This document shows positions 2,380 through 45,631 of a stretch of 64,000 bases of DNA, piece after piece. A program made the translations under genes and the position numbers. The stretch covers positions 22,278 to 86,277 of IMG/VR virus record IMGVR_UViG_3300044970_001522; one strand, given 5' to 3'. Every line of letters starts with the position of its first letter. Position 1 is the stretch's first letter. The notes beneath the pieces were generated by a model. The model ran no database searches and was not told the DNA's origin. It was given only the letters and a program-made list of their open reading frames with translations. This stretch comes from a virus. Its lineage: Duplodnaviria; Heunggongvirae; Uroviricota; Caudoviricetes.

Positions 2380-3321
2380 ATGCACGTGACCGAAACTGAA
2401 GAGTATCAGAAAACAGAGCCGATTGAGGTTTACTCGAATCGCGACGGACAAAACCTGTACAAGATTTCAAAGACCTCCTTTACGTTCAGTGCCGGTGAAA
2501 GGCAGGTTCGATTGCACGACACTCCCACGAGTTCGACTGACATTATCGTAGACGCAGACATACACAGCGGAGAAAGTTTCGCAGAACTTCTTCTGACTCT
2601 GTCGGCAATCAAAGACCTTCCTGTGCTGCGAAGTCTACAATTGGATATCCCGTACTTCCCTTATAGCCGCCAAGACCGCCAGTGCGCCGAAGGGGAAGCG
2701 TTTTCGCTAAGAACTTTTGTAAAAGCTCTCGCTCCCTACCTTGACGGGGTAGGCGATAGGGTGTACACATGGGACGTGCACAGCCACGTTGCAAATGAGC
2801 TCATTCGAACCGAAATCGGCTGCGAGTTCAACAACCTACAACCCCAACTGTTTCTCCAGAAGTTCAAAGACCGGGGGCAAGAGTTTAGTGCTAAGACAAT
2901 TGTGATTGCTCCGGATAAAGGTGCAGTCGAAAGAGCAACCCTCGTTCAACAAGCACTGGGACTCCACTCTGTAGTGTACGCTACGAAAGTTCGCAACCCC
3001 AAAGACGGGCAAATCCTAAGGACGGAAGTTCCAGAAGACGTCAGTTACAAGGGCAAAAACCTTCTGATTGTAGACGACATCTGCGACGGTGGTCGCACCT
3101 TTATCGAACTCGCCAAGGTGCTACGTCAGTTCGACCCGTCTCGAATTGACCTTTATGTCACCCATGGAATTTTCTCTAAGGGTTTTGAGGTGTTTGGGGA
3201 CTTGATTGACAACTTTTATGTTGCGAACTTACTACCAAACAGATCCTTCTACAAAGAGCTTCCCTCGAACTTGACCCACCTTCGCACCGAAAACTACCCC
3301 ACCCCACGCAACCAACCATGA
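2380..3321 (+). CDS. ribose-phosphate pyrophosphokinase (Prs) homolog; candidate ADPR-PP/PRPP synthetase
   Basis: Prs motifs DIPYFPYSRQDRQ (cf. PYFGYARQDR) and PRPP-binding loop NLLIVDDICDGGRTF; ATG 2380 follows promoter cassette (the track ORF starting at 2107 overlaps upstream gene and promoter). Confidence 0.6.
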   Translation: MHVTETEEYQKTEPIEVYSNRDGQNLYKISKTSFTFSAGERQVRLHDTPTSSTDIIVDADIHSGESFAELLLTLSAIKDLPVLRSLQLDIPYFPYSRQDRQCAEGEAFSLRTFVKALAPYLDGVGDRVYTWDVHSHVANELIRTEIGCEFNNLQPQLFLQKFKDRGQEFSAKTIVIAPDKGAVERATLVQQALGLHSVVYATKVRNPKDGQILRTEVPEDVSYKGKNLLIVDDICDGGRTFIELAKVLRQFDPSRIDLYVTHGIFSKGFEVFGDLIDNFYVANLLPNRSFYKELPSNLTHLRTENYPTPRNQP

Positions 3322-4832: not shown

Positions 4833-4842
4833 GCTTGGTACA

Positions 4843-4875
4843 AGGGGGTTTACACCCCCTGTTCCGGGGTATAAT
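4843..4875 (+). promoter_or_regulatory. variant promoter (GGGGGTTTACACCCCC palindrome + TATAAT)
   Basis: palindrome overlapping TTTACA -35; TATAAT 16 nt downstream. Confidence 0.4.
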
Positions 4876-4931
4876 TCTGAAAGAACTGACGTTCCCTCGT
4901 GCGATGGGGAAACACTTAAATCACCAAGGTC

Positions 4932-5522
4932 ATGGACTACAAGACAATCGCATACAAGAAAACCATTCTGGTTTTAAATGCCACGTACGAACCCTTGAAC
5001 CAGACCTCGTGGCGAAGGGCTAGAGTGCTTGTATTGAAGGACAAGGCCCATGTCGTGTCCAGCCGCACCATTCGCCTAAAGACATACGTTAAGGTTCCCC
5101 AAGCCAAGATGGCAGCGGCGAAGCCCTCTCGCACCTTGATTCTAAAACGGGACAATCACACCTGCCAGTATTGCGAGTACTCCGGTCCTAAACTAACACT
5201 GGATCACGTTTTACCAAAGTCAAGAGGTGGCCAAGACACGTGGCAAAACCTTGTCACCAGCTGCCTTGAGTGCAACAATTGCAAGGACAATCGCACCCCG
5301 GAAGAGTGGGCGGTTGCCCTGAAGAAGGTGTTTTCGAAGGAAACCACGAATGTTTCTTCACTGCCTTTTAGCTGGGATAGCTTTCAGATTGGGATGATGG
5401 AAACCCGCGTCACTCGACGTGGCACCACTCTCGCCTCAAAACCGAAGGCACCTTACAGCAAAATGTCCGTTACAATCAGCACGGCAGAAGTAGAAGAGTG
5501 GCGTGAGTACGTCTATGTCTGA
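4932..5522 (+). CDS. HNH endonuclease
   Basis: CQYCEYSGPKLTLDHVLPKSRGG...NLVTSCLECNNCK HNH/zinc-finger motif. Confidence 0.65.
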   Translation: MDYKTIAYKKTILVLNATYEPLNQTSWRRARVLVLKDKAHVVSSRTIRLKTYVKVPQAKMAAAKPSRTLILKRDNHTCQYCEYSGPKLTLDHVLPKSRGGQDTWQNLVTSCLECNNCKDNRTPEEWAVALKKVFSKETTNVSSLPFSWDSFQIGMMETRVTRRGTTLASKPKAPYSKMSVTISTAEVEEWREYVYV

Positions 5523-5899
5523 CTCTGGGCAGTGTATACGACACACCCACGAGGACCTAAAGGGGACATCCTGGTGCGGGAGAATCCTTTGTAGCTCCGA
5601 CTGGGTGTTTCAGAGTTTAGACCATGCTGCGTGCGCTCAAATGGGCGAGAGTTGCCAAGTTCCTTGCAAAAGGTGCCTAGAGACGGCTACGGAAGCATTG
5701 AGTGGGAGCTATACGCTACCCGCCCAGCAAAACAGCAACCCTGAGCAAACCACACCGGACGACTCCGTTCATGGGCATAAGATACTTGGAGAACTACAGA
5801 GAATTGTAGACCTTATTGGGGAAGGGCAGGTTAGACTGGATTCCACAACACAAGATATCACCTATAGTAATCTTTGGGACCTTTACGACTGAGTTCACC

Positions 5900-6178
5900 A
5901 TGTTAAATAAACGCCTACAAGAAATCCTAAGCCAGCACCCTGACGACTTCGAAGTTATCCTGGCTACTCGCAGAAAACACGGCTATTGCTTTGAGAACGA
6001 GTTTACTATAGACAACATGGAAGTAAATCATTGTAGCTATACCACAAAGTGGCAGAGTAACATCGATCACTATTCCTTCGTATACACTATATGTCAGTAT
6101 CGAGACGAAGTTGACGGTGAACTTGTTGACCTTGAAATTCCCATGGTAACAAAGAGAGTCATAGTTTTAGAGGCTTAG
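5900..6178 (+). CDS. hypothetical protein
   Basis: ATG in a ttcaccATG context just after the stop of the upstream ORF. Confidence 0.3.
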   Translation: MLNKRLQEILSQHPDDFEVILATRRKHGYCFENEFTIDNMEVNHCSYTTKWQSNIDHYSFVYTICQYRDEVDGELVDLEIPMVTKRVIVLEA

Positions 6179-6393
6179 TCTGTGCGAAAGGTTAAAGGAA
6201 TAGTAAAGGGAGCGAAGTTGCTGGCTGAACTCACCCTGTACTTTGCCGTGGCGTGCGGATCAGCTTATGGTGCCTTGAGACAGGGTTGGCCACCCGAGAT
6301 TCTGGCGGTGTCAGTAATTGCCGGCGGGTGGACTTACTTATTCTTGGACTCAGATGGCTACTAGCCCACATACTCGATTAACCGTTTGCTTTA

Positions 6394-6437
6394 GGGCGGT
6401 TCTCCGCCTTGTTTATGCTCCGAAAAAGCGGTAAAAT
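6394..6437 (+). promoter_or_regulatory. cassette promoter TTGTTT-N17-TAAAAT
   Basis: GGGCGGTTCTCCGCC. Confidence 0.5.
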
Positions 6438-6464
6438 AACCAAGTATCCAAGACCCATACAAAA

Positions 6465-6944
6465 ATGACACCTTCCCCTCTGTATAAATCCAGTGGTAGC
6501 TACTTTATTGACTTTCCACCCCTACCTGGAGAGGAGGAGGGATGCAATCACGTAGAAATATACGAGTACGACCACTGTGAGTGGTTCTGGTTGAACGAGG
6601 AAGAACACTCGGGTCCTTGGGGTAGCCTCAAAGAAGCTGAAGGGTCAGCACGTGGAATTTACGCAAGCAAGTGTTTGGAGAGAGTTCGCAACGATCTAAA
6701 AGACGCTTTTGAGCCCTTTAATGGCGAATGCTTAGATGCGTCTAACGTGGAAACCCTCAAGGACTCTCTACGAGACGTGATTGTAAAGTACATCCCACTA
6801 CCGTCTGTGCCAGTACTAAACTGGAAAGTTTTTTGCGACGATTCAAACAACTCTCCGCAAGATATCGGCAATGGCGTGATAAACGTTACAATCATCTGCT
6901 CAACCTCAAGAACCAGTAAACACGAGACCCCAAATGACCAGTAA
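6465..6944 (+). CDS. hypothetical acidic protein
   Basis: ATG downstream of cassette promoter at 6394-6437. Confidence 0.35.
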   Translation: MTPSPLYKSSGSYFIDFPPLPGEEEGCNHVEIYEYDHCEWFWLNEEEHSGPWGSLKEAEGSARGIYASKCLERVRNDLKDAFEPFNGECLDASNVETLKDSLRDVIVKYIPLPSVPVLNWKVFCDDSNNSPQDIGNGVINVTIICSTSRTSKHETPNDQ

Positions 6945-24501: not shown

Positions 24502-25554
24502 ATGGCAAACATCGAACGCAAACTCGCCTCCGTCCAGCGAATCGCTGAGGTTCGCTCTATCCCTGAAGCAGACAGAATCTGTGCCTACCGTGTTAATGGG
24601 TGGTGGGTTGTTGACTCTGTAGGTAAGTATGAGGTTGGGGACTTGGCAGTTTACCTGGAGCCAGACTCGTTTGTGCCCCATGTACTGGATCCTACTCTGT
24701 CTAAGGGGAAAGAACCGAAGGAGTATAAGGGGGTAAGGGGGGAGAAATTAAGAACAATTCGGCTGAAAAAGCAACTTTCTCAGGGGTTGTTGCTACCGTT
24801 CGTGGAGACATTGAACGGAGGATTCTTCCAAGTCAAAGGTGATGACGGCTTCTTACGCTTTGTAAGGGAAGGTGACGATGTTACCGAACTCCTCGGTATT
24901 CAAAAGTGGGAAGCTCCGGTCCCCGCATGCCTTGCCGGACAAGTTCGTGGAAACTTCCCGAGCTACATTACCAAAACGGATCAGCCGAGAGTTCAATCTC
25001 TATACGACAAACTGGGGGAATACAAGAATGTTGTATACGAAGTTACGGAGAAACTAGAGGGTACATCTTGTACGATGTACCTTAACAACGGAGAGTTCGG
25101 AGTTTGCTCCCGTAACTTAGACCTAAAAGAGGATAATAATAACACTTATTGGTCCGTCGCTAGAAAAGTCAATCTAGAAGAAAAACTGAAGACTGCAGGG
25201 TTTGACAATGTGGCTGTACAGGGAGAAGTTGTAGGCCCAAAAATCCAGCAAAACATCTACAAGCTAAATGACTTCAAGTTCTTTGTTTTTGATGTCTACC
25301 TTACGGATATGGGGAGGTACATGACCCCCCTGGAAAGGAAAAACTTTTGCGATCAATTTGGTTTGGGCCACGTCCCTGTGTTGGGAAGCTTCTCTATAAA
25401 GGATATGGGTGTGGAAGAGATCCTCGGTATGGCAGACGGTTTCTCTCAACTTAACAATAAGACTCTCCGGGAGGGGATTGTCTTCAAGAGTGAATGTGGT
25501 GCTTTTAGCTTCAAGAGCATCAGCAATCAGTACCTTCTTAAAAGCGGGCTTTGA
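24502..25554 (+). CDS. RNA-ligase-family nucleotidyltransferase (Rnl2-like) with duplicated C-terminus downstream
   Basis: motif I TEKLEGTS (KxxG lysine nucleotidyltransferase); the 3' end is antisense-overlapped by a homing endonuclease gene and duplicated at 26464-26691. Confidence 0.5.
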   Translation: MANIERKLASVQRIAEVRSIPEADRICAYRVNGWWVVDSVGKYEVGDLAVYLEPDSFVPHVLDPTLSKGKEPKEYKGVRGEKLRTIRLKKQLSQGLLLPFVETLNGGFFQVKGDDGFLRFVREGDDVTELLGIQKWEAPVPACLAGQVRGNFPSYITKTDQPRVQSLYDKLGEYKNVVYEVTEKLEGTSCTMYLNNGEFGVCSRNLDLKEDNNNTYWSVARKVNLEEKLKTAGFDNVAVQGEVVGPKIQQNIYKLNDFKFFVFDVYLTDMGRYMTPLERKNFCDQFGLGHVPVLGSFSIKDMGVEEILGMADGFSQLNNKTLREGIVFKSECGAFSFKSISNQYLLKSGL

Positions 25555-30050: not shown

Positions 30051-30788
30051 ATGAATAACGTTACTTCCAATTTTGCCTTCATCGGCGACCTACACTCTCA
30101 GAGAAAGCCCCTGCTCAAAGCGCTCGATTATTGCCGAGGAGCAAATTGCACACCAATTTTCCTCGGCGACCTTTTTGACTCTCGCATGGAAACAAGCGAC
30201 AGCGCAGGTGTGTACAAAGCCGTTCGGCAAGCCGTGGAAGAAGGGGCGATTGTGCTTCGAAGCAACCATCAAAACAAGCTGGAGCGTTACGCTCGCGGGA
30301 ACAACGTGGTTCTTAAAGAGGGCTTTGAGCGTACCGTACAAGACTTCTCAGACGCAGGTATCCCTATTGAGGAAGTCTCTGCCTGGCTGGAAACTTTTCC
30401 CTACGGGGTTGCCTTGCGAGATTCCAGAGGGACAGAGTACCGTTGTGCTCACGCGATGTTTCCGAAGTGGGTTCTTGTTCCACCGTCTTACACTGGAGTG
30501 TACCGTGTGAACGAGGTGACGAGAAAAGCCAAGGACTACATGCTGTTTGGCCCTCGCCGCCCCGGCGCGGTGTACCCTCAAGATGAGACTCGCGTCTATT
30601 GGTGGGAAGAGGAATGCGATCGGACCTGGGTTCGTGTCGCAGGGCACTACCACCACGTTCACACGAGCGAAAAAAGCCTGGTTCTTGATGGGCAGATGGG
30701 TGGAAGTACTCAGAAAAGTTTTGACCCGACGCATGCTCGCCTCTGTGTCTGGAACCTAGAAGAACAAACACTCGTTCAATTTGCTTAG
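30051..30788 (+). CDS. calcineurin-like metallophosphoesterase (predicted leaderless)
   Basis: GDLH...GDLFDSR...SNHQ metallophosphatase motifs; ATG 7 nt after the -10. Confidence 0.55.
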   Translation: MNNVTSNFAFIGDLHSQRKPLLKALDYCRGANCTPIFLGDLFDSRMETSDSAGVYKAVRQAVEEGAIVLRSNHQNKLERYARGNNVVLKEGFERTVQDFSDAGIPIEEVSAWLETFPYGVALRDSRGTEYRCAHAMFPKWVLVPPSYTGVYRVNEVTRKAKDYMLFGPRRPGAVYPQDETRVYWWEEECDRTWVRVAGHYHHVHTSEKSLVLDGQMGGSTQKSFDPTHARLCVWNLEEQTLVQFA

Positions 30789-33861: not shown

Positions 33862-35346
33862 ATGACAACGCCATCCTTTTTAAACGCACTCGAAAACGAG
33901 TTTAACCAAACCATCACCGCTAACGGTGCAAAGGCATACAAGTCCACCGAGTCTAAGTGCCTGGACCTCTTTGGAAAGATTGCAGCTTGCCGTGACAACA
34001 TCAGCGAAGCAACTCGCCTATTCAATCTTGCTTATGCCGAAAACCCTGAGACCGCAACTCGAATCTTGTTTTGGGCACGCGACATTCGTGGGGGCCAGGG
34101 AGAGCGAAAGATCTTTCGAGAAGTTTTTAAGGAACTCGTCCGCAATGATGCTGCAATTGGTGCCAGGCTAGTTAGCCTGATTCCACAGTACGGTCGCTGG
34201 GATGATGTGGTAGCCCTCGACGGTACCTTAGTTTGGGGCATCGCACTCGAAGCAATTAAGGCACAACTGAACGCCGACCTAAATACGGAAGTTGGAAAGT
34301 CAGTGTCACTTCTGGCAAAGTGGCTGCCTTCCATTAACGCTTCCAGCCAGGACTCTAAGAGGATTGGCCGAAAAATTGCCGAAGCAATGGGTTGGACCGA
34401 GAGACAGTACCGCAAGGCACTGACTGCCCTCAGGACCCAAGTCAAAATTGTTGAGCAGCCAATGTGTGCCCGTGAGTGGGAAAGCATTGACTATAGCAAG
34501 TTGCCTTCTCGGGCCGGATTCATGTATCGTAAAGCCTTTGCAAAGCGCGACGGCAACCGTTACCAATCCTACCTTGACTCAGTAGAAAAAGGTGAGGCAA
34601 AAATCAATGCCGGTACGATCTACCCGTATGAGATTGTTCACAAGTACCTTTACGGGGGCGATAGGAGTGACCAAACCCTGAACCTAATGTGGGAGGCTCT
34701 ACCCAACTACATGGAGGGAGAGCAGCTAAACGGCCTGGTAATTGCCGACGTCTCAGGATCAATGGGAAATAACGGCGGCATGCCCATGGCGGTTTCAATC
34801 TCGCTGGCGATGTACATCGCTGAGCGTAACACCGGGGCATGGAAGGATAAGTTCCTAACCTTCTCCGGAAGTCCGCAGTTGCAGTCGGTTACAGGGAGAA
34901 ACGTTGCTGAGCGTGTTCGTAACCTTAGTCAGGCCGACTGGGGTGTGAATACAGACCTGCAAGCAGTCTTCAATCTTGTGTTGGCTACCGCAACGAGGAA
35001 CCATATTCCTGAGGGGGAAATGCCGCGCAAGCTCATCATTGTCTCAGACATGCAGTTTGATTCCTGCTGCAGAAACAACTCAGTGACAAACTTTGAGGCG
35101 GTGCGAATCAAGTATGCTCAAGCAGGGTATTCCTTGCCGGAACTTGTCTTCTGGAATGTTAGCTCTAGCGGCAACGTACCTGTGAAAATGCATGATACGG
35201 GGACTTGCCTGGTCTCCGGATGCAGCCCTTCAATCCTGAAAGCTGTGCTTACTGGCGGGGTAATTACGCCTGTAGGGGTTATGCGTGACGCTGTTTACAC
35301 TGAAAGGTACGACGCTGTCGGTGCCGTATTTGCTGAAGGAGCATGA
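33862..35346 (+). CDS. vWA-domain protein with N-terminal helical domain (possible Ro60/TROVE-like or DUF2828-like)
   Basis: MIDAS motif VIADVSGSMGNNGG (DxSxS) at about 60% of the length, preceded by ~290 aa of predicted helical sequence, which is Ro60-like domain order. Confidence 0.45.
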   Translation: MTTPSFLNALENEFNQTITANGAKAYKSTESKCLDLFGKIAACRDNISEATRLFNLAYAENPETATRILFWARDIRGGQGERKIFREVFKELVRNDAAIGARLVSLIPQYGRWDDVVALDGTLVWGIALEAIKAQLNADLNTEVGKSVSLLAKWLPSINASSQDSKRIGRKIAEAMGWTERQYRKALTALRTQVKIVEQPMCAREWESIDYSKLPSRAGFMYRKAFAKRDGNRYQSYLDSVEKGEAKINAGTIYPYEIVHKYLYGGDRSDQTLNLMWEALPNYMEGEQLNGLVIADVSGSMGNNGGMPMAVSISLAMYIAERNTGAWKDKFLTFSGSPQLQSVTGRNVAERVRNLSQADWGVNTDLQAVFNLVLATATRNHIPEGEMPRKLIIVSDMQFDSCCRNNSVTNFEAVRIKYAQAGYSLPELVFWNVSSSGNVPVKMHDTGTCLVSGCSPSILKAVLTGGVITPVGVMRDAVYTERYDAVGAVFAEGA

Positions 35347-35528
35347 TCTGGATCAAATTGCCGGGTGCCCTCTGCATCGTTCTGCAAACCGTTTTCATAA
35401 CTTTGAAGGTAGAGGGTCAGGTTTCCTGGCCCTGGCTCACAGTGCTTTCACCAACCCTTGTGCCAATCTTTCTACTTGGGTTGGGAGCCCTTTGGATGAT
35501 TCTTCAACTACTTTCGCATGAGAAATAA
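35343..35528 (+). CDS. small membrane protein, WPWL-motif paralog 1
   Basis: LKVEGQVSWPWLTVLSPTLVPIFLLGL. Confidence 0.4.
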   Translation: MIWIKLPGALCIVLQTVFITLKVEGQVSWPWLTVLSPTLVPIFLLGLGALWMILQLLSHEK

Positions 35529-35531
35529 CTA

Positions 35532-35720
35532 ATGTTTGAGAATCTCGCAGTTTCGTTAATGACAGCCCAGGGTCTCCTCCTCGGGTTGAAATTAACGGGG
35601 CAAATAACCTGGCCATGGCTCTCAGTGTTTAGCCCAATCGTAATCTTAGGCTCTGTGTCCATTTTGTCACTCATTCTGCTTCTGCTACTGTCGAATTTGT
35701 ATGCAAGGTCAACCAAGTGA
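35532..35720 (+). CDS. small membrane protein, WPWL-motif paralog 2
   Basis: LKLTGQITWPWLSVFSPIVILG. Confidence 0.4.
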   Translation: MFENLAVSLMTAQGLLLGLKLTGQITWPWLSVFSPIVILGSVSILSLILLLLLSNLYARSTK

Positions 35721-35963
35721 ATCGCATAGCGAGTGGGCTCCCTTTTCCTCTTCTTTGCGGGAGGAGTACGACAGTCTTGTAGAAAACTTACGAAGTCGTG
35801 GCCTAGACAATGTTATTTCTTGGGAGAACTTTCTAAGAGACTTCACACCCTTAGTTGGACACGAAATACCAACCGAGTACCGCCATTACGACGTAAGAGT
35901 GTCGGAAGATGGTGAAGTTATCGAGTTGTACAAGGGGACTCGACGAGTAACAAATTTGAGCCA

Positions 35964-36029
35964 GGGCGGTTAACCGCCCCTAGCGGTTCGGTTTTCACCC
36001 TTTCCTTCGCTCAGTAAAACCGCTATAGT
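35964..36029 (+). promoter_or_regulatory. cassette promoter TTTCCT-N17-TATAGT, ATG at +7
   Basis: GGGCGGTTAACCGCCC perfect palindrome upstream. Confidence 0.5.
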
Positions 36030-36073
36030 TCACGTATGGAAAACACCCCCCAGAACACAGCATCTTCTCGGGG

Positions 36074-36478
36074 ATGCCTCCTTTCTCCGTTAGCCCTAAA
36101 GCAATGTGGAAGTTTAACAAACCCCTGAGTCAATTGCGCTCTTTTCGTGACAGTTTACTGAGGGACGACCAACACACCTACGCCGCAAGGCTTGGAGAAA
36201 TTGTGGAGTCCCTCGAAGAGTGGTATGGAGGTGCCATGGAGTCGAACGAAGAAGCAGGGGGAGCAGGTGGCTTTGATGAGCTAAGCAGAGTGTACAGAGA
36301 GGCAAACTCAATCTACGAGTCTAAGCTCTCCGATGAAGCCAAGTATGACCTTATTTTCTCCAAGAAGATATCGCAAAAAGTCCCCTTCTCGTGGTACGAC
36401 CCTGACACATCTTACGAGGAGGACGTAAGGTGCTTTATGAACGCCTTTCGAGAGTATATGGGTGGTGCCCCGCGATAG
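36074..36478 (+). CDS. hypothetical protein (start uncertain: 36074 or 36104)
   Basis: a 30-codon leaderless ORF at 36036 in another frame precedes it. Confidence 0.3.
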   Translation: MPPFSVSPKAMWKFNKPLSQLRSFRDSLLRDDQHTYAARLGEIVESLEEWYGGAMESNEEAGGAGGFDELSRVYREANSIYESKLSDEAKYDLIFSKKISQKVPFSWYDPDTSYEEDVRCFMNAFREYMGGAPR

Positions 36479-37199
36479 GCCCCGAGTGAGGGTCTCTGCT
36501 TGAGTCCGTTTACCCTTAGCACTCTCAACCTATGATACGGATGTGGAGCTCAAGGTTCCACTCCTTGCCCCCCTTAACCTACACCCAGCAAAGCGGTGCG
36601 AAAAACCGAAGAGTAGCCAAGTGGTTAGGCAGCGGTAATGCAAAAAGATTACCTAGCTTAGGTAATTCAGCAACTACCCAATACGCAAAAGGAACCGCCA
36701 TACGCAAGTTCGAATCTTGCCTCTTCGACTTTGCCTTCGGCAAACATAGATAGTTCAGCGATTTACCCCAACTCTCTTGGGAAAAACAACTATCTAGCTA
36801 AACCCAAACTTTATCTCCATAATGATAGTAAAAGACCTTTATTCTCGATCCAAGTAATTTGCCAAGCAAACTTAGATAGAACAAAAAGATATGACACCCA
36901 CTGAAGCAGGTTTTGACGGTGACAAGGGGATACGGTTAGACGTGCCGAGTAAAGGGATAGGGCATGACTTATTGTATCGACTGAAGCGAGGTAAGACCCT
37001 ACCCAAAAACTCCCAAAACAAATCGTTAAAGAACATGCTGATCTGGCTTTACCCCGACGACAGCGACTCTAAGCTCTTGTTTTGTAACTCTGACGGGGAG
37101 TGGTTTAATTTAACCTTTGAACCCACTAACATTGGAGAGTAGCTCAAGGGCTAAGAAAAAACTTTCAATATCGCTCCAGGTAGTTTTCGGATCAAATAC

Positions 37200-37311
37200 G
37201 GGACCGTAGCTCAACTGGTAGAGCACGAAAAGTTATCTTGACAAAGATACATCAGCAATTAAATTACCTCTTTTAAAGGCGCGGTTGCAGGTTCGAGTCC
37301 TGCCGGTCCCA
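37200..37311 (+). ncRNA. tRNA-like RNA with ~40-nt irregular hairpin replacing the anticodon arm
   Basis: perfect 7-bp acceptor stem (GGGACCG/CGGTCCC), canonical D arm (TAGCTCAACTGGTAGAGCA), T arm (GCAGG-TTCGAGT-CCTGC) and discriminator A; 61 nt lie between the D and T arms instead of the usual ~22. Confidence 0.5.
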
Positions 37312-37325
37312 TTCCCATTTTTGTT

Positions 37326-37868
37326 ATGACTAACAGCAAGACCTTCTTTCTCCTAACTCAAAACCACCTGAAACTGCTGAGAAGAATGCACGTTGGGTGG
37401 AGCAACTGTGAATTCGGTGCTCCGGAAATAGACCCGAAAAGACCGTATGGCAACAGTTGGGTTATCGGGGACATACACGAAATTCTGACTGGAGAAGACC
37501 TAGAAGAATTGACCGAGTCACAGGAAGAGGAGTACAGGCAACTTCACGAACAAACTCAAACAGCCCTCCAAATCATTCTCTCTACAGGGAAGTTTGAGGA
37601 AGGTTTGTACATGCTTACTGAACCGTATTCTTCTACATGGGTGCGGAAAGCCATGATCAATTCCATGGCCTACAAAGACTACACAGCCAGTATGGTCTTC
37701 GATACTGAAGACAAGATTATTGTTGGTCGTGTCATAGACATCGACGACATTATCTCGTTTCACGGCGAAACGATACCCGAGTTTGAGTCCAACTTTCATG
37801 CAGCCATCGAAGACTATTTAGCCGCATCCCAGGTACTTGGTTCTTCGCCGGAAAAGCCCGCAAGTTAA
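37326..37868 (+). CDS. hypothetical acidic protein
   Basis: 180-aa ORF between the tRNA-like gene and a tRNA 3'-half-like remnant. Confidence 0.35.
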   Translation: MTNSKTFFLLTQNHLKLLRRMHVGWSNCEFGAPEIDPKRPYGNSWVIGDIHEILTGEDLEELTESQEEEYRQLHEQTQTALQIILSTGKFEEGLYMLTEPYSSTWVRKAMINSMAYKDYTASMVFDTEDKIIVGRVIDIDDIISFHGETIPEFESNFHAAIEDYLAASQVLGSSPEKPAS

Positions 37869-37870
37869 GG

Positions 37871-37920
37871 TACTTCGGGTGTCTAAGGCTCGGTTTCAGG
37901 TTCGAGTCCCACCGCTTCCA
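37871..37920 (+). ncRNA. tRNA 3'-half-like remnant (T-loop GGTTCGAGTCC + acceptor-like end)
   Basis: GGCTCGGTTTCAGGTTCGAGTCCCACCGCTTCCA resembles the 3' half of the 37200 element, but no matching 5' half forms a full cloverleaf. Confidence 0.25.
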
Positions 37921-38157
37921 CTTTCACACGAACAATGAACAGAGTTTCAATTGCGATCTTGGCGCTTTGCACCGCTTTATCTGGCAACGAGGCATTGTGC
38001 AAGACCCAAGTAGTGATTACAGGTAGGAACGCAGAAGAAGTACAAAGAAATGCGTTCAAAACCAAAATGAGCTACCCGCTCAGGCCGCTAAAGTGTAGTC
38101 AACGGTGCTCTCAATTGTGGGAAAGAGACTGAGGGTCGGGTCTTAGCTCCAGAGGAA

Positions 38158-38201
38158 GGGCGGTTTACCCCCTTGCCTGTCTGAAAGAAAGGCGGTATGA
38201 T
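38158..38201 (+). promoter_or_regulatory. cassette promoter TTGCCT-N17-TATGAT
   Basis: GGGCGGTTTACCCCC. Confidence 0.55.
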
Positions 38202-38224
38202 TATAGCGTAGCCGAGCAAGTCCA

Positions 38225-38503
38225 ATGGAGCAGCCCACAAATCTCTCCCCCAAAGCACAAGCAATTCGTGCTCAAGCCATCAATGTGTATCGGAGCAGAG
38301 CTACAACCGAAATTGACCTGATTGTAGCAGCCGCTCTTCGCGCTGCTGCTGACTCGATTGTTCCCGAGGACTACGCGTCTTTCACCGGGCACGTTGAGTG
38401 GGACAACGGTCTAGAAGCAAGGAACGACTCCGTCCGTGAGTCCCTCCTTGATATTGCCTCTGAGCTGGAGATTAGATTCACTAACTCGATCCAAGAGCGG
38501 TAA
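38225..38503 (+). CDS. hypothetical protein
   Basis: after promoter 38158-38201. Confidence 0.3.
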   Translation: MEQPTNLSPKAQAIRAQAINVYRSRATTEIDLIVAAALRAAADSIVPEDYASFTGHVEWDNGLEARNDSVRESLLDIASELEIRFTNSIQER

Positions 38504-38515
38504 ACCGTTTTCCTA

Positions 38516-38559
38516 GGGCGGTTTACCCCCTTTCCTTTCCGACAGGAAAGCGGTATAGT
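38516..38559 (+). promoter_or_regulatory. cassette promoter TTTCCT-N17-TATAGT; +1 TTATTTCAGTCCA
   Basis: spacer TTTCCgacaGGAAAG identical to 23564. Confidence 0.6.
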
Positions 38560-38589
38560 TATTTCAGTCCAAGCAACCCCTCACAAACC

Positions 38590-39417
38590 ATGCCCGCTTT
38601 CGCCATCACCAACGACCTTAACTGGACCGTCTCCCCAAGGCCCACGGCATCGCTTAACTCCCATGGAGTCTGGGTTGCGGATCCAGACCGCAAAGCGATA
38701 CACCGAGACGACACCGACGAACGCCTCGGATATGTTTCCACCGAGTACGAGGTGGTGCAAAATGCCCAGCTGCTCGGGATGATTAACCCTATGGTTGAAG
38801 AGGGGCTTCTGGTAGTGGAAAACATGGGATACTTGGCTCACGGAGCCAAGGTGTTCGCCCAGGCGAAAATTAACCAGGAGTTTCGTGTAATTGGCGAGGA
38901 TTACAACGCATACATCACACTTCTGAATGGGCACACAGGGAACGCATCCGTAGCCATCGGCCCGGTTGCCACTCGCGTAATTTGTGGAAACACCTTTTCG
39001 ATGGCTTACTCTAACATCGGAGAAAAATTCCGCCACTCTTCCGGAGTGAACGAGCGCATTCTTGAGAGCACCGCAGTGCTTGACTTTGTGAATAGCGCCA
39101 TGAAGATGTATTCTAAAAGAGTTGAAGTCATCGCCTCGGCAACTTGCACTTCCGCCCAATTCCGTGCCTTCCTTGAGGCGACTTACAAGAAAGAAGCGGA
39201 CAAAATGCGCAATGTCAACGTTCTCAACGACCTGTTTTACAACGGCGCTGGTAACGAAGGTCGCACCTTTTACGATGCCATGAATGCGGTTACGGACTTT
39301 AGTTCCAATCGTAGTCGAAAGAGCGAGACCGGACGCTTTGGCTACGCAAACTTCGGCCAAGGCGCAACCATCAACCAGCGGGCCATGGAAGTAGCCCTTG
39401 ATATGGCTACTGTCTAA
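38590..39417 (+). CDS. DUF932-like protein (phage/plasmid-related, TIGR03299-like)
   Basis: LLNGHTGNASVAIGPVATRVICGNT resembles the conserved ...S.DGS...P.RVVCxNT core of DUF932. Confidence 0.45.
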   Translation: MPAFAITNDLNWTVSPRPTASLNSHGVWVADPDRKAIHRDDTDERLGYVSTEYEVVQNAQLLGMINPMVEEGLLVVENMGYLAHGAKVFAQAKINQEFRVIGEDYNAYITLLNGHTGNASVAIGPVATRVICGNTFSMAYSNIGEKFRHSSGVNERILESTAVLDFVNSAMKMYSKRVEVIASATCTSAQFRAFLEATYKKEADKMRNVNVLNDLFYNGAGNEGRTFYDAMNAVTDFSSNRSRKSETGRFGYANFGQGATINQRAMEVALDMATV

Positions 39418-39442
39418 CTAGCGAGTGTCGGGCCCAGGGGGT

Positions 39443-39488
39443 GGGGCGGTTTTCCGCCTTAACTCCCTTGCCTCGCACACGCTAGAGT
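39443..39488 (+). promoter_or_regulatory. degenerate cassette (GGGGCGGTTTTCCGCC ... TAGAGT)
   Basis: the TTGCCT hexamer is only 9 nt from TAGAGT; alternative -35 TTAACT at 18 nt. Confidence 0.3.
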
Positions 39489-39526
39489 TAATCAGCTAAC
39501 CCTCAATCCCCCGACCATCAACCCCA

Positions 39527-39757
39527 ATGAAGTACCGCATTCGAGAAGAAATCCGTACCGAAAACGGTGAAAGGATTAGCCGGTTCTACTGCGAACACAA
39601 GTTCTTATGGTGGTGGTTACTTACCTTCTTTTATGAAGGCGTAGACGGTTGCCCAGGCCCGGACGTTTTCTTTAATACAAAGCAAGAAGCGCTAACGGCG
39701 CTGCGCGATCATTTTCAGTCCTTAGAGTTAACAGAAGTGGTATTTCACGAAGTATGA
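39527..39757 (+). CDS. hypothetical protein
   Basis: ORF. Confidence 0.3.
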   Translation: MKYRIREEIRTENGERISRFYCEHKFLWWWLLTFFYEGVDGCPGPDVFFNTKQEALTALRDHFQSLELTEVVFHEV

Positions 39758-40044
39758 AAACTGAGAACCCGTATGTTGGCGGTATCCTTGGCTTAGTGAC
39801 TATTGTCACTGCGCTAGGGCTAGCAGTTCTAGTGGTGGCGGTAATTAACTTGAGCTACCGAAGAGCGGAAGAGCACAACGCTGAGATTGAGAGGGAAGAA
39901 GCGAAGGTTTTAGCCGAAAAGTGCAAGCTGGTGAGTAACTCAGTTCGTGCAGACCCGTACATAACCGAGAGGACCCTAAGTCTCCACATTTGCAACGACC
40001 AAGGGGTCTCAACTTACTTTGTAACGCGTAAGCCTTTCCCCTAG
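39754..40044 (+). CDS. membrane protein (N-terminal TM)
   Basis: GILGLVTIVTALGLAVLVVAVI. Confidence 0.3.
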   Translation: MKTENPYVGGILGLVTIVTALGLAVLVVAVINLSYRRAEEHNAEIEREEAKVLAEKCKLVSNSVRADPYITERTLSLHICNDQGVSTYFVTRKPFP

Positions 40045-40115
40045 GTTTGCTGGGCGAGGAAAACCCCGCACCGTTCACCTTTTCCAAACAAACTACTGTA
40101 TTTTCGAACGAAACA

Positions 40116-40667
40116 ATGACCACAGCAACTTGCACCGAAGCACTGACGCCAGCTGAAGCCACTCGGGTTGCTCACCGGATGTGCACATCACAAGGGCTCC
40201 CTCCGCTCCCGCATATCCCGGCGAATTTCCTACTCGCCCTTGACGCCTTTGAGGAGTGCACGTACAGAAACGTAGAAGACTTGGGAGGGTTGACACCCGA
40301 ACAACAGGAAGCCAATCTCCTCCATGTCGCACTATGGATTGTTGAGCGCGACCGGAAAAACCTCCACATGGAGAGGTGGCACAAGCTCTGGTTTGACACT
40401 GACAGAACAACTTACGAAGATTGGTCCTTCTGGAAGGAACCATCGAACGAAGCAGGTTTTCACACGTGCGGGACCACTCACTGTCTGGCGGGCTTCGCGC
40501 AGGTTATGGGAGGGGTTGGTGCTTTTACTCTCACACCTAAAGAAGCGGGAGAGGTGCTTCTCGGATCGAATGCAGCAGGCCACTTCTTCGACACTGACGA
40601 ACAAGCACTTGTTTTCCTGGAACAAGTTATTGAACGTAATTCCCATTCAGTACACCCCACTGAGTAG
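40116..40667 (+). CDS. paralog family A member 4
   Basis: LPPLPHIP...QQEANLLHVALWIVERD...CGTTHCLAGFAQVMGG...FLEQVIERN. Confidence 0.5.
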   Translation: MTTATCTEALTPAEATRVAHRMCTSQGLPPLPHIPANFLLALDAFEECTYRNVEDLGGLTPEQQEANLLHVALWIVERDRKNLHMERWHKLWFDTDRTTYEDWSFWKEPSNEAGFHTCGTTHCLAGFAQVMGGVGAFTLTPKEAGEVLLGSNAAGHFFDTDEQALVFLEQVIERNSHSVHPTE

Positions 40668-40668
40668 T

Positions 40669-40962
40669 ATGAAAATCACGTATAACGCACCGTCGAAAGT
40701 TGAACGCACCGTCGAACTTAACGAGTCCGATTTCCCACCCCTTTATGGCGCAATCCGAGACTGTTTCCTGCAGAGACTTAAATCTTTCGGCTTGTCCAAC
40801 CCGTTCTTCCCCTTTGAGTACGAAGCGATCGAGTTCTGTCGCACGGCGGGAGTTGATACGACTAATCGCATAGACGTGGTCGAATTCTTTGAGACGCTTC
40901 TTTTGAGGGGAACCCCGGAAGTTTCAAACATTTCGGAGGAAGATGAAAACGGCAATCACTAG
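40669..40962 (+). CDS. hypothetical protein
   Basis: ATG 2 nt after the upstream stop. Confidence 0.3.
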   Translation: MKITYNAPSKVERTVELNESDFPPLYGAIRDCFLQRLKSFGLSNPFFPFEYEAIEFCRTAGVDTTNRIDVVEFFETLLLRGTPEVSNISEEDENGNH

Positions 40963-41386
40963 CTTAAGGGTGGCCGAGAAGGTTTCGGTGCAGTCAGGGG
41001 ACTTTCCCGACATCCCCTATCTTATTGTCAACCTAACATGGAAAGTATCCCCCAACAGCACGCACTTTCAGTGGTTTCTCGACGATACGAAAGATATCGT
41101 TCAGCAGTTAAGCGTCGTAAATCCTGAAGAATGGGACGACCCGTTCTCGCTATTCGAAATAGAATTTGAAAAAGTTTGGATTCCGCACGGAGATAGGTGG
41201 AAGTACATTCCAAAGTTCAACACTTTCTGGTACAAGGATTACGTTTCAGACTGCCCGGTCGTTAGGGCCACCTTAAAAGAGCTCGAACACTTTCAGCAGA
41301 GAGAAGAGTTTTCGTCGGAGTACCGGTTTTTCGATGAGAGTATTTTGTACAAGCATCTCTCGGTCTTGTGCACCTTTACGGACTGA
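40943..41386 (+). CDS. hypothetical protein
   Basis: ORF. Confidence 0.3.
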   Translation: MKTAITSLRVAEKVSVQSGDFPDIPYLIVNLTWKVSPNSTHFQWFLDDTKDIVQQLSVVNPEEWDDPFSLFEIEFEKVWIPHGDRWKYIPKFNTFWYKDYVSDCPVVRATLKELEHFQQREEFSSEYRFFDESILYKHLSVLCTFTD

Positions 41387-41724
41387 TCCGGGTAAATTAC
41401 ACTGTACAGACCTTTCGCAGAGCAACGTTGGAACAAACGAATAAAGAGCCAGAATGTTGCCGCAGAAGTTTCGGCGCATCATTGATTGACACAGCTAAAC
41501 GAATGCTGGAAGATCCGTCGTTTGCCCCTCGCCAAGTGGCAAAGGACCGACTCTCAATTTGTGAGAGCAATGTGTGCGGATCCTTTGAAGAAAAAAGTTC
41601 AACCTGTGACGAGTGCGGATGCTTTCTTCCCGCTAAGACAACCATGGCAAACATGCGGTGCCCGCGAGACTACTGGGTTGAGTGGGTGAGAGGGGAGTCC
41701 AATGACGCGGGAGAGGGGGCTTAA
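41368..41724 (+). CDS. Cys-rich (zinc-ribbon-like) protein; start uncertain
   Basis: CESNVCGS...CDECGC...CPRDYW. Confidence 0.3.
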   Translation: MHLYGLIRVNYTVQTFRRATLEQTNKEPECCRRSFGASLIDTAKRMLEDPSFAPRQVAKDRLSICESNVCGSFEEKSSTCDECGCFLPAKTTMANMRCPRDYWVEWVRGESNDAGEGA

Positions 41725-41746
41725 GTCAAGGGTGCCTTGCAGATAA

Positions 41747-41775
41747 GGTTTACTCCCCTTGTGAAACGCTATTCT
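41747..41775 (+). promoter_or_regulatory. cassette remnant upstream of tRNA cluster
   Basis: GGTTTACTCCCCTTGTGA retains the palindrome and TTG but no correctly spaced -10. Confidence 0.25.
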
Positions 41776-41785
41776 AAACGTGAAA

Positions 41786-41857
41786 GCCCTGGTAGCTCAG
41801 TGGAAGAGCACTGTCCTTCTAAGACACCGGTCGTGGGTTCGAATCCCTCTCAGGGCG
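41786..41857 (+). tRNA. tRNA-Arg (anticodon TCT), slightly irregular stems
   Basis: acceptor GCCCTGG/TCAGGGC, D arm GCTC-AGTGGAA-GAGC, anticodon loop CTTCTAA, T loop TTCGAAT; no encoded CCA. Confidence 0.55.
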
Positions 41858-41904
41858 TAGGTTGCCTTTGCAGCCACACTAAACAACAACAGCAACAATA
41901 CAAA

Positions 41905-42069
41905 ATGGCAAATCTTTCTCTAGTTGATCGTGCCGCACGAATTGGCGTCGAAAACCCCGACGGCGCAAAGCTCCTCCTAAGACTCAGCGAGGCAAGCACC
42001 AGCACTGAAGTTCAAAGTGCTCTAGACGAATTTGACTTGGCGGTCGGAGTTCAAACTCCCTCTGTCTGA
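41905..42069 (+). CDS. small protein sharing C-terminal motif with 42443
   Basis: TEVQSALDEFDLAVGV versus SEVQSALDELNLDVGL. Confidence 0.3.
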   Translation: MANLSLVDRAARIGVENPDGAKLLLRLSEASTSTEVQSALDEFDLAVGVQTPSV

Positions 42070-42111
42070 GCTTTACCTTGGGTTCCACCTCACACGGTGG
42101 TTCCCTATCCT

Positions 42112-42200
42112 GGGCGTGTGGTGTACGGTGCACAGGGACCATTATAAAGTCCTCTCCGGCAGATTACCGGCTAGTTAGGGTTCGACTCCCTACACGCCTA
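42112..42200 (+). tRNA. type II (long variable arm) tRNA-like gene with 9-nt anticodon loop; isotype ambiguous
   Basis: acceptor GGGCGTG/CACGCCT, T arm TAGGG-TTCGACT-CCCTA, variable stem-loop CCGG-CAGATTA-CCGG, anticodon stem GGGAC/GTCCT enclosing CATTATAAA. Confidence 0.4.
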
Positions 42201-42290
42201 CTTAGTTTCAAGTCCTCGAAAACTCGTTAAAGAACACACCCACAGGCCATATCCGGTGAACGACACAGGAGTGGCCCACCACGGTGACAA

Positions 42291-42375
42291 GGAAGAGTGG
42301 CTGAGCGGCCGAAAGCAGCAGCTTCGAACACTGTAGAGGGTTAAACCTCCGGGGGTTCAAATCCCCCCTCTTCCG
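42291..42375 (+). tRNA. tRNA-Ser (anticodon CGA), type II
   Basis: acceptor GGAAGAG/CTCTTCC; D arm GCT-GAGCGGCCGAA-AGC nearly identical to bacterial tRNA-Ser; loop TTCGAAC; variable arm GAGG-GTTAAA-CCTC; T arm GGGGG-TTCAAAT-CCCCC. Confidence 0.55.
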
Positions 42376-42442
42376 TTTACGGTTTCCCCTTTGAACACAT
42401 AGAAGTTCAACGGCGCTAAAGAAACCGTTATACACATGCAAA

Positions 42443-42784
42443 ATGACAATTAAAGACAAACCAGAATTCGTGAATGAAGTGATTTCACGAGTGATTAACA
42501 ACGCACCAATAAGCGAAGTTCTCCGCGTATACTCCCTCTCCGTAAAAGCGGCAATTGATGAACTTGACGACGACGGCTTCTTTCAGTCCGTGCTTAACGC
42601 AGGGTACACTGACCTAATTGAAAAGTACGCTGACTTAGACGACCTTGACGAATTTGTTGAGGGTTTCTCGGGTAGTGAGGGAAGTGTGGTCTACGAGAAC
42701 ACAGGAAGGTCGGAAGTTCAAAGTGCTCTTGACGAGCTTAACCTTGACGTTGGTCTGTGCCTGGACGAATGTTCCCCTTCCTAG
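42443..42784 (+). CDS. hypothetical acidic protein
   Basis: caaaATGaca. Confidence 0.3.
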   Translation: MTIKDKPEFVNEVISRVINNAPISEVLRVYSLSVKAAIDELDDDGFFQSVLNAGYTDLIEKYADLDDLDEFVEGFSGSEGSVVYENTGRSEVQSALDELNLDVGLCLDECSPS

Positions 42785-42966
42785 GCGAGACTGACTGGCT
42801 TTTGCCTCTGAGGCAAGCATCCTCTTTAGCGGAGGTGCGTGCACTTTCCTTGGAAAGTCGAGTTAGGGAGATGAGGCGAACTAAGCTAAAACTGAGGCGG
42901 AGGAGATTAGAGCTACAGAAAGAAGAGTCTCAGATTCTGCGGGCTATACTTAAAACCCTGTGAAAA

Positions 42967-43010
42967 GGGCGGTTTCCACCCTTGCCTTCCCCAATCAAAA
43001 GAGCTATAAT
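42967..43010 (+). promoter_or_regulatory. cassette promoter TTGCCT-N17-TATAAT
   Basis: GGGCGGTTTCCACCC. Confidence 0.55.
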
Positions 43011-43040
43011 GGGGGTGTAAGCGAGCTTAGTTCTCCGAGT

Positions 43041-43565
43041 ATGAAGCGTGCCATCAAAATTGACGGCAAGGTTACCGTCCCTAACTTCACTATTGAAAAA
43101 CTCCTGCGGTCGGTGTCAGAAGACGCAGCGGGTACCCGAAGGTCTGACCCACGGTTGTGGACTCTGGGGGATGTTGGATCTAGGTCAGTTCCAGACTGGC
43201 TTCGCTCCACTTTGCAAGAGGCACTTTTGCTTCTAAATCGTGCAGAACAGCAATACAGGTTTCCATCCCCGACTGACAATATGCGCCGCGAGGGCGCCAC
43301 GGTTGTGTACGGGAAAGGGTCCGTAGGTTCGCACGAAGACTACCAGATGTCAGGTTTGTCTCTCCTGGTTTTTCTCGGGGGGCACACCCCTGACGACGAA
43401 GCTCCCTACTGCAGCCAGCTCATATCTGAAGGCGAATTTTACGCTGGCGGAAAAATGACATTGATGAGGCCAGGGGACGCGCTAGTTTTTGACGATAGGG
43501 AAACGCACTCTTGGATGGCCAACGGCTGCTGGTTCTTTCTCGTTAGCCCCCTCAACAAAGTTTAG
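43041..43565 (+). CDS. 2OG-Fe(II) oxygenase superfamily protein (P4H-like)
   Basis: GSHEDY (HxD) ... ~60 aa ... DDRETHSW (distal His), with GGKMTLMRPGDALVF typical of the jelly-roll core. Confidence 0.4.
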   Translation: MKRAIKIDGKVTVPNFTIEKLLRSVSEDAAGTRRSDPRLWTLGDVGSRSVPDWLRSTLQEALLLLNRAEQQYRFPSPTDNMRREGATVVYGKGSVGSHEDYQMSGLSLLVFLGGHTPDDEAPYCSQLISEGEFYAGGKMTLMRPGDALVFDDRETHSWMANGCWFFLVSPLNKV

Positions 43566-45157: not shown

Positions 45158-45631
45158 ATGGAAAACATACCCGAAGCACCCGAAGCATACGTGATGGTCG
45201 GAGCCCCTGGGTCCGGAAAGTCGACTCATGTATCAAAGCTGCTAAGTCTTCACCCAGATGCCGTTGTAATTTCCGGCGATGAAATCCGCGCTGAGCTCTA
45301 CGGAAACGCGGACATTCTAGGAAATTACGTAGAAATCCACGACCGCATGCTTGAGATTCTGGAGGAGAGTGTAGGTCGGACTATAGTTATGGATGGTACC
45401 CACTACAAGGCAGCTTACCGCAAGGAAGCAATTGCTACGCTGAACTCGTACGGTTACGATAAGGTTACTGCAGTAGTCATTGAAAAGCCCCTCACCGTTT
45501 GCCTACACCAGAATGCTTCTCGCGAGCGCAGGGTTCCGGAAGAAGTGATTGAGCGCATGCACGCCTCCTTACAAGCTTCCCTCAAGAATATCACCAACGA
45601 ACCCTTCCACCGTATTGACTTTGTATACTGA
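45158..45631 (+). CDS. P-loop polynucleotide-kinase-like protein (predicted leaderless)
   Basis: YVMVGAPGSGKST Walker A at the N-terminus as in Pnk kinase domains; ATG 7 nt after -10 TATAAT. Confidence 0.5.
   Translation: MENIPEAPEAYVMVGAPGSGKSTHVSKLLSLHPDAVVISGDEIRAELYGNADILGNYVEIHDRMLEILEESVGRTIVMDGTHYKAAYRKEAIATLNSYGYDKVTAVVIEKPLTVCLHQNASRERRVPEEVIERMHASLQASLKNITNEPFHRIDFVY

Follow-up and report, generated by a model that had tools for sequence, protein, structure and literature searches.

Candidate Y-RNA-like partners of a Ro60-like phage protein: tRNA-shaped RNAs with a conserved module in the anticodon arm

The stretch of DNA analyzed here (the window) comprises 64,000 nucleotides, positions 22,278 to 86,277 of IMG/VR virus record IMGVR_UViG_3300044970_001522, from a large phage that is a distant relative of Synechococcus phages B3 and B23 and has a close relative on a 277-kb contig. 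Its plus strand encodes a 494-amino acid protein with a vWA domain (33862-35346) and, starting 1.26 and 1.85 kb downstream of the end of that gene, two tRNA-shaped RNAs, e2 (122 nt, 36607-36728) and e1 (112 nt, 37200-37311), each with extra sequence in the anticodon arm. This insert is a conserved module, co-occurring with the vWA protein family across unrelated phages, and the RNAs that carry it are most likely a bacterial-virus version of Y RNA rather than broken tRNAs.

The tRNA features attributed to e1 in the first-pass annotation are all present: an open 7-bp acceptor stem (GGGACCG/CGGTCCC), a D arm (GCTC-AACTGGTA-GAGC), a T arm (GCAGG-TTCGAGT-CCTGC) and a discriminator base, which is A. 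The Rfam tRNA model scores it at 48.5 bits against a gathering score of 29, skipping a 52-nt anticodon region as an insertion, and the family model R1 (below) at 98.1 bits; near-identical or identical copies occur in 9 related contigs. When all single deletions were scanned, one canonical solution emerged: with 37228-37266 taken out, a perfect CGCCT/AGGCG stem and a CTTTTAA loop remain, and the rest of the arm (CCT-CTTTTAA-AGG-CG, 37267-37281) would then read as Lys-UUU. Removal of 39 nt had been proposed earlier as restoring a Lys-UUU-like arm, and that much stands; the break, placed then at 26/27, lies at tRNA positions 28|29, a placement also given by the anatomy and hairpin covariation of the family, and the stem drawn for it (TACCT/AGGCG) contains an A-C mismatch. 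Within the module, an AAAAGT linker is followed by a 6-bp hairpin (TATCTT-GACA-AAGATA, 37234-37249), CAT, the hexamer CAGCAA (37253-37258) and TTAAATTA. The TTGACA hexamer remarked on previously is there (37238-37243), as the apex of this hairpin; relatives have CTT-GNNA-AAG at that place.

ARAGORN in default mode does not call e1, and its intron-mode calls (Gly-ACC for e1, Leu-CAG for e2) were rejected as forced, with poor stems. Rfam searches of 35300-43500 with E up to 10 matched tRNA only, the models of Y RNA, tmRNA, ribozymes and introns giving no match; ARAGORN likewise found no tmRNA, so that these searches do not support an earlier suggestion that e1 might be a tmRNA-like fragment.

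The second RNA, e2, was overlooked in the first pass. It scores 44.7 bits with the Rfam tRNA model in a permissive search and 66.4 bits with R1, and shares with e1 the open 7-bp acceptor stem, discriminator A and capped module helix. Its 5-bp anticodon stem (GCGGT/ACCGC) is whole, and a 57-nt module (36637-36693, delimited by sequence reading and alignment to R1) takes the place of the anticodon loop, so that an anticodon is absent. This module runs from an A-rich linker (AATGCAAAAAG) through a hairpin (ATTACC-TAGCTTA-GGTAAT, 36648-36666), T and CAGCAA (36668-36673) to a 20-nt linker ending in AAAAGGA. RNAs of the e2 type are kept in distant phages and clades as GCGGY...RCCGC CAT.C. A third gene is represented by 37871-37920 (plus strand), described earlier as a remnant resembling a tRNA 3' half; alignment identifies it as the diverged, decayed 3' portion of another gene of the e1 type, of which the T loop alone still scores with R1 (8.5 bits, E 0.42). 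Its 5' part seems to have been replaced by the open reading frame (ORF) at 37326-37868, which encodes 180 amino acids with a HicB-like C-terminal part (PHROG 9151) and ends within the decayed RNA gene.

The 494-amino acid protein has a helical N-terminal part and, after it, a vWA domain whose MIDAS motif reads DVSGSM, the same order as in the Ro60 fold, where a ring of alpha-helical repeats precedes a vWA domain with a MIDAS site. It matches Pfam DUF2828 and DUF7788, and also PHROG 850, annotated “RNA-binding protein”; at E up to 10 the only other Pfam match is a weak one to VWA_2, and TROVE (PF05731) is not matched, which settles for DUF2828 the choice between these two families posed in the first-pass annotation. 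The Ro60-like domain order proposed there is supported by structural comparison: with an AlphaFold model built from 29 sequences (predicted local distance difference test score, pLDDT, 67.7), Foldseek returned only three matches below E 1e-3, all of them TROVE/Ro60 entries of phage phiLo (E 2.7e-7, template-modeling (TM) score 0.45–0.49). A phmmer search with the protein against PDB sequences gave nothing meaningful; with a profile of the protein family, the phiLo TROVE protein came joint second (E 0.006), over the MIDAS segment. The Foldseek and profile matches together suggest, with moderate confidence, a Ro60-like fold that is barely visible to sequence methods. The family is large, with more than 7,700 relatives in a large protein collection (clusters from metagenomes), and it occurs in 695 cultured phage records, among them those of Felix O1-like coliphages, Listeria phage P100, mycobacteriophages (whose annotators label homologues “Ro-like RNA binding protein”) and Campylobacter and Vibrio phages. 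Homologues in two viral contigs (L316, 3501-4925; L318, 3501-4904) have one in-frame stop each in the standard bacterial code, which may reflect stop-codon recoding or a pseudogene.

The inserts of e1 and e2 belong to a widespread family. A scan for over-spaced D and T arms (pattern TGGTAGAGCA-N45-75-GGTTCGAGTCC), which covered public viral contigs and a single genome from each prokaryotic species, gave hundreds of over-long tRNA genes, many of them built like e1; 46 distinct examples of the insert came from these blind pattern scans, and 126 distinct elements were in hand after searching with a covariance model, R1, built from 38 family members. In the plan that these have in common, the anticodon stem contributes 2–5 nt of its 5' strand, and there follow in turn an A-rich linker, a 6–8 bp hairpin with a 4-nt G-N-N-A/U loop, 0–4 nt, C[A/U]GCAA, a U-rich linker, and the remainder of the anticodon arm. 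On 150 aligned R1 matches, changes on both sides are seen in 7 of the 7 hairpin pairs and 94.9% of cells are paired, compared with 99.5, 97.9, and 99.7% for the acceptor, D and T stems, which show compensatory changes as well; the covariation score is 0.85 (0.21 in shuffles, 0.09–0.17 in slid controls), on an alignment that was fitted to R1 and so leans towards the modeled structure. RNAalifold independently gives the same hairpin and no other helix in the insert, and in e1 the hairpin is both the minimum-energy fold and the one given by family covariation. The helix drawn previously for e1 (CG plus AAAAG/CTTTT, enclosing a loop of about 37 nt) is therefore not the conserved fold. A helix pairing the two linkers, A-rich on the 5' side and U-rich on the 3' side, was also considered and set aside: single-sequence folds were inconsistent, and RNAalifold gave none. 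The module was found nowhere described in the literature on small phage tRNA introns, DUF2828 and Lak introns.

Linkage of the RNA to the protein was approached from both sides. Starting from the RNA, all window ORFs were compared by tblastn with the loci retrieved by the tRNA pattern, and the vWA protein was the sole recurrent window protein (58 loci, 36–45% identity). A homologue lies near 58 of the 81 insert-bearing loci, usually 170–930 bp downstream on the same strand, and near 2 of the 162 loci that have inserts of another kind, introns of archaeal type or tRNAs in tandem (Fisher p 2e-34, a value that overstates the evidence because the loci are not all independent lineages); most of the 23 insert loci lacking a homologue have less than 1.5 kb of flank. 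Starting from the protein, 80 viral loci were fetched by the protein alone. At identities of at least 60%, all 47 testable loci have 1–5 tandem R1 matches of 105–140 nt beside the gene, within arrays of about 20 ordinary tRNAs; arrays of 2–5 module RNAs are also found in gut-phage loci of the pattern scan. In a clade with 40–43% protein identity no tRNA-type partner was found; there, AARG-N5-11-C[AT]GCAA occurs 30–365 nt past the stop codon in 18 of 32 loci, with 55 of 66 motif hits falling in 3% of the sequence (p 1e-73), and it follows the 5' strand of a long-range helix, the layout of a classical Y RNA.

Four of the cultured phages (Listeria P100, mycobacteriophage Crossroads, Felixounavirus wV8 and Synechococcus phage B3) were examined for further layouts of the module. 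P100 (L336) has three tandem simple stem units upstream of its vWA gene, gp165, each with a 5' helix strand, UAACAGCAAUUACUA, a variable part, an A-rich run and a 3' helix strand. Crossroads has three units after gp55, the middle one enclosing, in this order, T arm, stem-loop and D arm, the permuted tRNA domain by which YrlA is defined (Chen et al., 2014). The unit of wV8 lies in a tRNA cluster downstream of the protein gene, flanked by AGACCGUU and AACGGUCU; its parts are UACAGCAA, a hairpin of anticodon-like form, a T arm, an acceptor-like stem that is closed, and a D arm. After manual circular permutation its whole length can be aligned with un-permuted RNAs from one paralogue family, with which it shares the D arm GTGTAAYGGTAGCAC, an ACAGCAA motif and a TTTCT...AGAAA hairpin. 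Phage B3 has the un-permuted form (MN695334, 221705-221814; 95 bits with R1), annotated “tRNA-Pseudo-GCA.” Nothing in Rfam other than tRNA matches the partner RNAs of any layout. In every layout the strand immediately 5' of CAGCAA has a pairing partner that is preceded by an A-rich run. The unit common to all is therefore a helix opening at its base into an internal loop, with CAGCAAUUA on one side and the A-rich run on the other, and e1 and e2 are its normal-order, capped-helix version.

Several other features of these phages were recorded. P100 has a ROOL RNA-like match at 1459-2010 (86 bits; gathering score 99.1), about 600 nt upstream of the Y-like RNAs and gp165, and an RtcB-like gene, gp160, 1.3 kb downstream of gp165. 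In wV8 (L334), permuted Y-like RNAs occupy 6265-6490 on the plus strand, beneath a minus-strand hypothetical coding sequence (CDS 48, 6329-6586) that may for this reason be spurious, and an unannotated tRNA lies at 6719-6792 (Rfam 55.6 bits). In B3 (L335, about 5750-5860 and 5980-6040) the module-bearing tRNA is flanked by a repeat, AGATGATTCAGCCATTAAACTTTTTTT…CATCATCTAGATTT, with a CAGCCA variant of the motif, and a further GGTGGTTCAGCAAC…CCACC unit lies ahead of it. The Band_7 protein of the window has no similarity to the “lipoprotein” upstream of the Crossroads homologue, so synteny with Crossroads is not claimed.

Known systems offer close parallels. Genes for Y RNAs adjoin those for Ro60, and the RNAs are tRNA mimics (Chen et al., 2014; PMC4201824); the Ro60 of Thermus phage phiLo binds adjacent Y-like RNAs (PMC12135203). 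Phage Bas63 gp130, whose structure is highly similar to that of Ro60 and whose gene immediately precedes tRNA genes, acts against the ppl defence system, and it has been speculated that some Bas63 “tRNA genes” are Y RNAs (2024 preprint, PMC11482910); the partner RNA was not identified there, whereas here a module, its layouts and its distribution are defined. A jumbo-phage survey counts TROVE proteins with a tRNA-like partner in phage RNA repair. As in the YrlA/Ro60 (Rsr) system, the RNA genes considered here directly adjoin the gene of a ring protein with the Ro60 fold and often occur as several copies, and each RNA combines a helix bearing a conserved single-stranded motif with a domain that has the D and T arms of a tRNA. 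In both, genes for RNA ligases frequently lie close by, and their proximity to the module in phages recalls the Salmonella rsr-yrlBA-rtcBA operon (cf. PMC7790460).

There are differences as well. YrlA has a closed acceptor-like stem and ends in the Ro-binding helix; e1 and e2 are un-permuted, with free ends at a 7-bp acceptor stem, a discriminator and a capped helix, and many module RNAs, unlike YrlA, keep an anticodon-like 7-nt loop. The likeness to Y RNA and YrlA seen in the first-pass annotation thus holds for gene adjacency to a Ro60-type protein and for the D and T arms, and extends to the permuted homologues of wV8 and Crossroads; it does not hold for e1 and e2 themselves in layout (YrlA being permuted, with no free CCA end), in motif (C[A/U]GCAA rather than GNCGAAN0-1G/CGAA) or in the fold proposed for the insert, and the Rfam comparison recommended there gave no match to a Y RNA family.

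Taken together, the Ro60-like fold (from a moderate-confidence model), the linkage found from both directions, the covariation seen in the RNAs and the homology between them and permuted RNAs of YrlA-like layout support the reading that e1 and e2 are Y-RNA-like partner RNAs of the Ro60-like protein at 33862-35346, to which we assign a probability of about 0.7; binding of the protein to module RNAs is suggested by the linkage of their genes. Since motif and layout differ from those of YrlA and the protein has no TROVE match, the e1/e2 system is placed as a variant within the Ro60/Y RNA kind. Several observations weigh against this reading. The protein belongs to Pfam DUF2828/DUF7788 and is not matched by TROVE, and its model is of moderate confidence (TM about 0.47). 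The conserved motif, (U/A)AC[A/U]GCAA(UUA), is not that of YrlA. Bas63 gp130 was set beside DUF2828 by description, other Felixounavirus phages having DUF2828 homologues upstream of tRNAs. Finally, many module RNAs with a split anticodon stem have traits that look as they do in decoding tRNAs, which speaks for an excised insert or a decoding role: among the 70 of 126 elements whose stem is perfect once the insert (after position 27, 28, or 29) is removed, U33 is then found in 83% and a purine at position 37 in 91%, and in paralogues with an ACGGC/GCCGT stem G37 accompanies anticodons ending in G.

Other observations on decoding point the opposite way. An elongator tRNA has a contiguous 5-bp anticodon stem and a 7-nt loop with U33 and a purine at 37; neither e1 nor e2 has such an arm, and e1 acquires one only with 37228-37266 deleted. 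The orthologues of e1 in related phages have the loops CGTTTAA, ACGTTAA or AGGTTAA, so that U33 is not kept. Elements of the e2 type, with a whole anticodon stem and no anticodon loop, make up 21 of the 126, and another 35 have no 5-bp anticodon stem solution. The ACGGC/GCCGT paralogues share a loop of the form AU-NNN-RA, and their anticodons differ between related phages; anticodons of module RNAs also often duplicate those of ordinary tRNAs in the same array (e.g., Pro-UGG in L280, Asn-GUU in L277). One reading of these sequences is that module RNAs derive from tRNAs and have kept a tRNA-like anticodon hairpin while the decoding constraint was relaxed. The permuted homologues, as they stand, could never be charged. 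Relaxed decoding and unchargeable homologues both speak more for a role as partner of the protein, as tether or as decoy than for splicing to a decoder.

The spliced decoder nevertheless deserves a fuller hearing. The 39 nt could be a small protein-dependent tRNA intron, with the vWA protein as maturase or chaperone and a phage ligase joining the halves to give tRNA-Lys(UUU). Besides the arms restored in e1 and the 70 split-stem members, with their U33 and purine 37, and the G37 of the ACGGC/GCCGT paralogues, this would account for the RNA ligase, kinase and phosphoesterase encoded in the window and for ligase genes within a few kb of the module elsewhere (of Rnl type at L006 and L136, of RtcB type at L026, L067, and in Listeria P100). 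It would also agree with “enigmatic introns” reported in tRNAs of Lak and other huge phages (Devoto et al., 10.1101/356790), which resemble the present cases in being over-long phage tRNAs with pseudo-tRNA calls and conserved inserts; on a comparison by description, they differ in being regarded there as introns and in having no protein associated with them. An intron of this kind is nonetheless unlikely. Neither e2 nor 20 other members have an anticodon loop to restore, e1 orthologues have G or C at position 33, the anticodons repeat those of normal tRNAs in the same phage, and the motif recurs in non-tRNA RNAs and permuted tRNA domains, from which excision yields no tRNA. The junctions have no conserved bases, the position of the insert ranges from 27 to 32, and Rfam intron and ribozyme families are unmatched; we know of no bacterial enzyme for such a junction. 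Known introns share with the module only the placing of extra sequence in the anticodon arm. A bulge-helix-bulge, as in archaeal and eukaryal introns, would need two 3-nt bulges on opposite strands about a 4-bp helix and cannot be drawn, since the two junctions fall together on the 5' side of a single helix (28|29 in e1; 27–31 in the family), and by inspection the bases after CTTTT do not extend the outer helix. A group I tRNA intron would be at least about 200 nt, with P1–P9 and a terminal G; at 39 nt, ending in A and with no Rfam intron match, the insert is, as already recognized in the first pass, far too short.

Three other explanations fare worse. That e1 and e2 are dead tRNA genes broken by a small mobile or repetitive element would fit the silence of ARAGORN in default mode, the decayed fragment nearby and the “tRNA-Pseudo” label of the B3 homologue, but is very unlikely given whole acceptor, D and T stems, compensatory changes in them and in the insert as well, more than 100 distinct copies, and an insert place and protein neighbor that stay fixed across phages with 36–45% protein identity. 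A small self-cleaving or self-splicing ribozyme comes to mind for a short structured phage RNA with a conserved single-stranded hexamer and RNA ligases nearby; its probability too is very low, as the insert has one helix, about 9 conserved bases and no conserved nucleotides at its junctions, the motif occurs in other layouts with nothing to splice, and no candidate matched, whether hammerhead-like cores (sought by eye) or pistol, hatchet, twister, HDV and group I/II introns (Rfam, E up to 10). Least probable of all is that the conserved sequence acts in DNA, as a promoter or recombination site within a tRNA gene: TTGACA-16-TAAATT at 37238-37265 matches a promoter at 10 of 12 positions, but the count of such sites, 4, is in line with a chance expectation of 2.5 ± 1.4, TTGACA is replaced in relatives by CTTGTCAAAG, CTTGTTAAG or CTAGTTTTAG, and what is conserved, with compensatory changes, is base pairing. 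A further, quite doubtful possibility concerns the split-stem members alone, e1 among them: these may be decoders restrained by a protein-binding arm, which is either excised under the Ro60-like protein or stays on the working tRNA. If so, the former would be a new protein-guided route of tRNA splicing in bacteria, the latter would bring a 55-kDa protein to specific codons or keep it from them, and rapid anticodon change would reflect an arms race with host anticodon nucleases.

If e1 and e2 are Y-RNA-like partners of the Ro60-like protein, a mechanism can be proposed. Each RNA is a whole tRNA body with the module grafted into its anticodon arm; in the module, a short helix with a cap gives way at its base to an internal loop formed by a (U/A)AC[A/U]GCAAUUA strand and an A-rich run. 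The RNAs would be transcribed within the phage tRNA island and trimmed as tRNAs are, and the ring protein would bind the helix and the CAGCAA loop. The tRNA body could then serve as a second, effector-facing module, as in bacterial YrlA, either tethering the protein to tRNA-recognizing factors or mimicking a tRNA substrate. During infection, the resulting ribonucleoprotein might serve to check or repair RNA, or might oppose host defence.

Three other genes on the plus strand of the window are relevant as context only. An ATP-dependent RNA ligase of the DRB0094/Rnl type (24502-25554; Pfam RNA_ligase and PHA02142; TIGR02306 at 176.6 bits, cutoff 151) is a possible RNA-repair partner, a metallophosphoesterase (30051-30788; Pfam Metallophos, E 4.6e-6) a possible RNA end-healing enzyme, and a P-loop kinase (45158-45631; AAA_33/Zeta_toxin, with a weak tRNA_lig_kinase match) a possible polynucleotide kinase. 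The window also has, at 42112-42201, a 90-nt tRNA, called Ile-UAU by ARAGORN, in which the extra arm is long and the D region unusual and for which the best Rfam match is a sub-threshold one to tRNA-Sec (25.9 bits); related phage contigs have a similar 91-nt gene (e.g., L266, 1909-1999).

Inserts of other kinds turned up in the same scans. In a second class (…UCGC…GCAA…GUUCCUAU, 35–45 nt, at positions 29–32), the tRNA-like genes are solitary and come from Chryseobacterium and Cloacibacterium isolates, as in Chryseobacterium sp. JK1 (L172, 3757-3841, with minus-strand genes at 4015-5442 and 1749-3503); further examples are L132, L155, L160, L162, L167, L177, L200, L218, L220, L224, L249, L054, and L183. 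Wherever the flanks reach, the RNA gene lies between an RtcB-family ligase gene and that of a conserved 584-amino acid protein with no Pfam or NCBIfam match, which accompanies the second-class insert also in one viral contig and one Spirochaetota metagenome-assembled genome. Kinship of this protein with the vWA family was tested, and the two are unrelated; the arrangement looks like an independent module of protein and tRNA-like RNA tied to RNA repair. At least three further conserved types of anticodon-arm insert occur in bacterial and phage tRNA-like genes: …GGGCCGAAGG…GGUUAU (L137, L178, L194, L225, L173), …GGUCAA…ACUUACUUC (L139, L140, L168, L226) and CCUC.CAUGG.GAAGG.CCAAA (L009, L056, L064, L070, L074, L084, L180). 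RtcB homologues lie beside L137, L180, and L133, and apart from two distant cases (L056, L059) these types are unlinked to the vWA protein.

For phage biology, the module RNA gives a very common protein family, until now without partner or mechanism, a candidate ligand, and it accounts for a group of genes in phage tRNA islands that go by the names “pseudo-tRNAs” and “intron-containing tRNAs.” Y-RNA-like RNAs would accordingly come both as permuted and as normal-order tRNAs, and the other anticodon-arm inserts found beside bacterial RtcB ligase genes suggest a broader rule. Together with the anti-defence phenotype of Bas63 gp130, these findings point to a particle of the Ro60/Y-RNA type as a widespread phage device for counter-defence or RNA repair.

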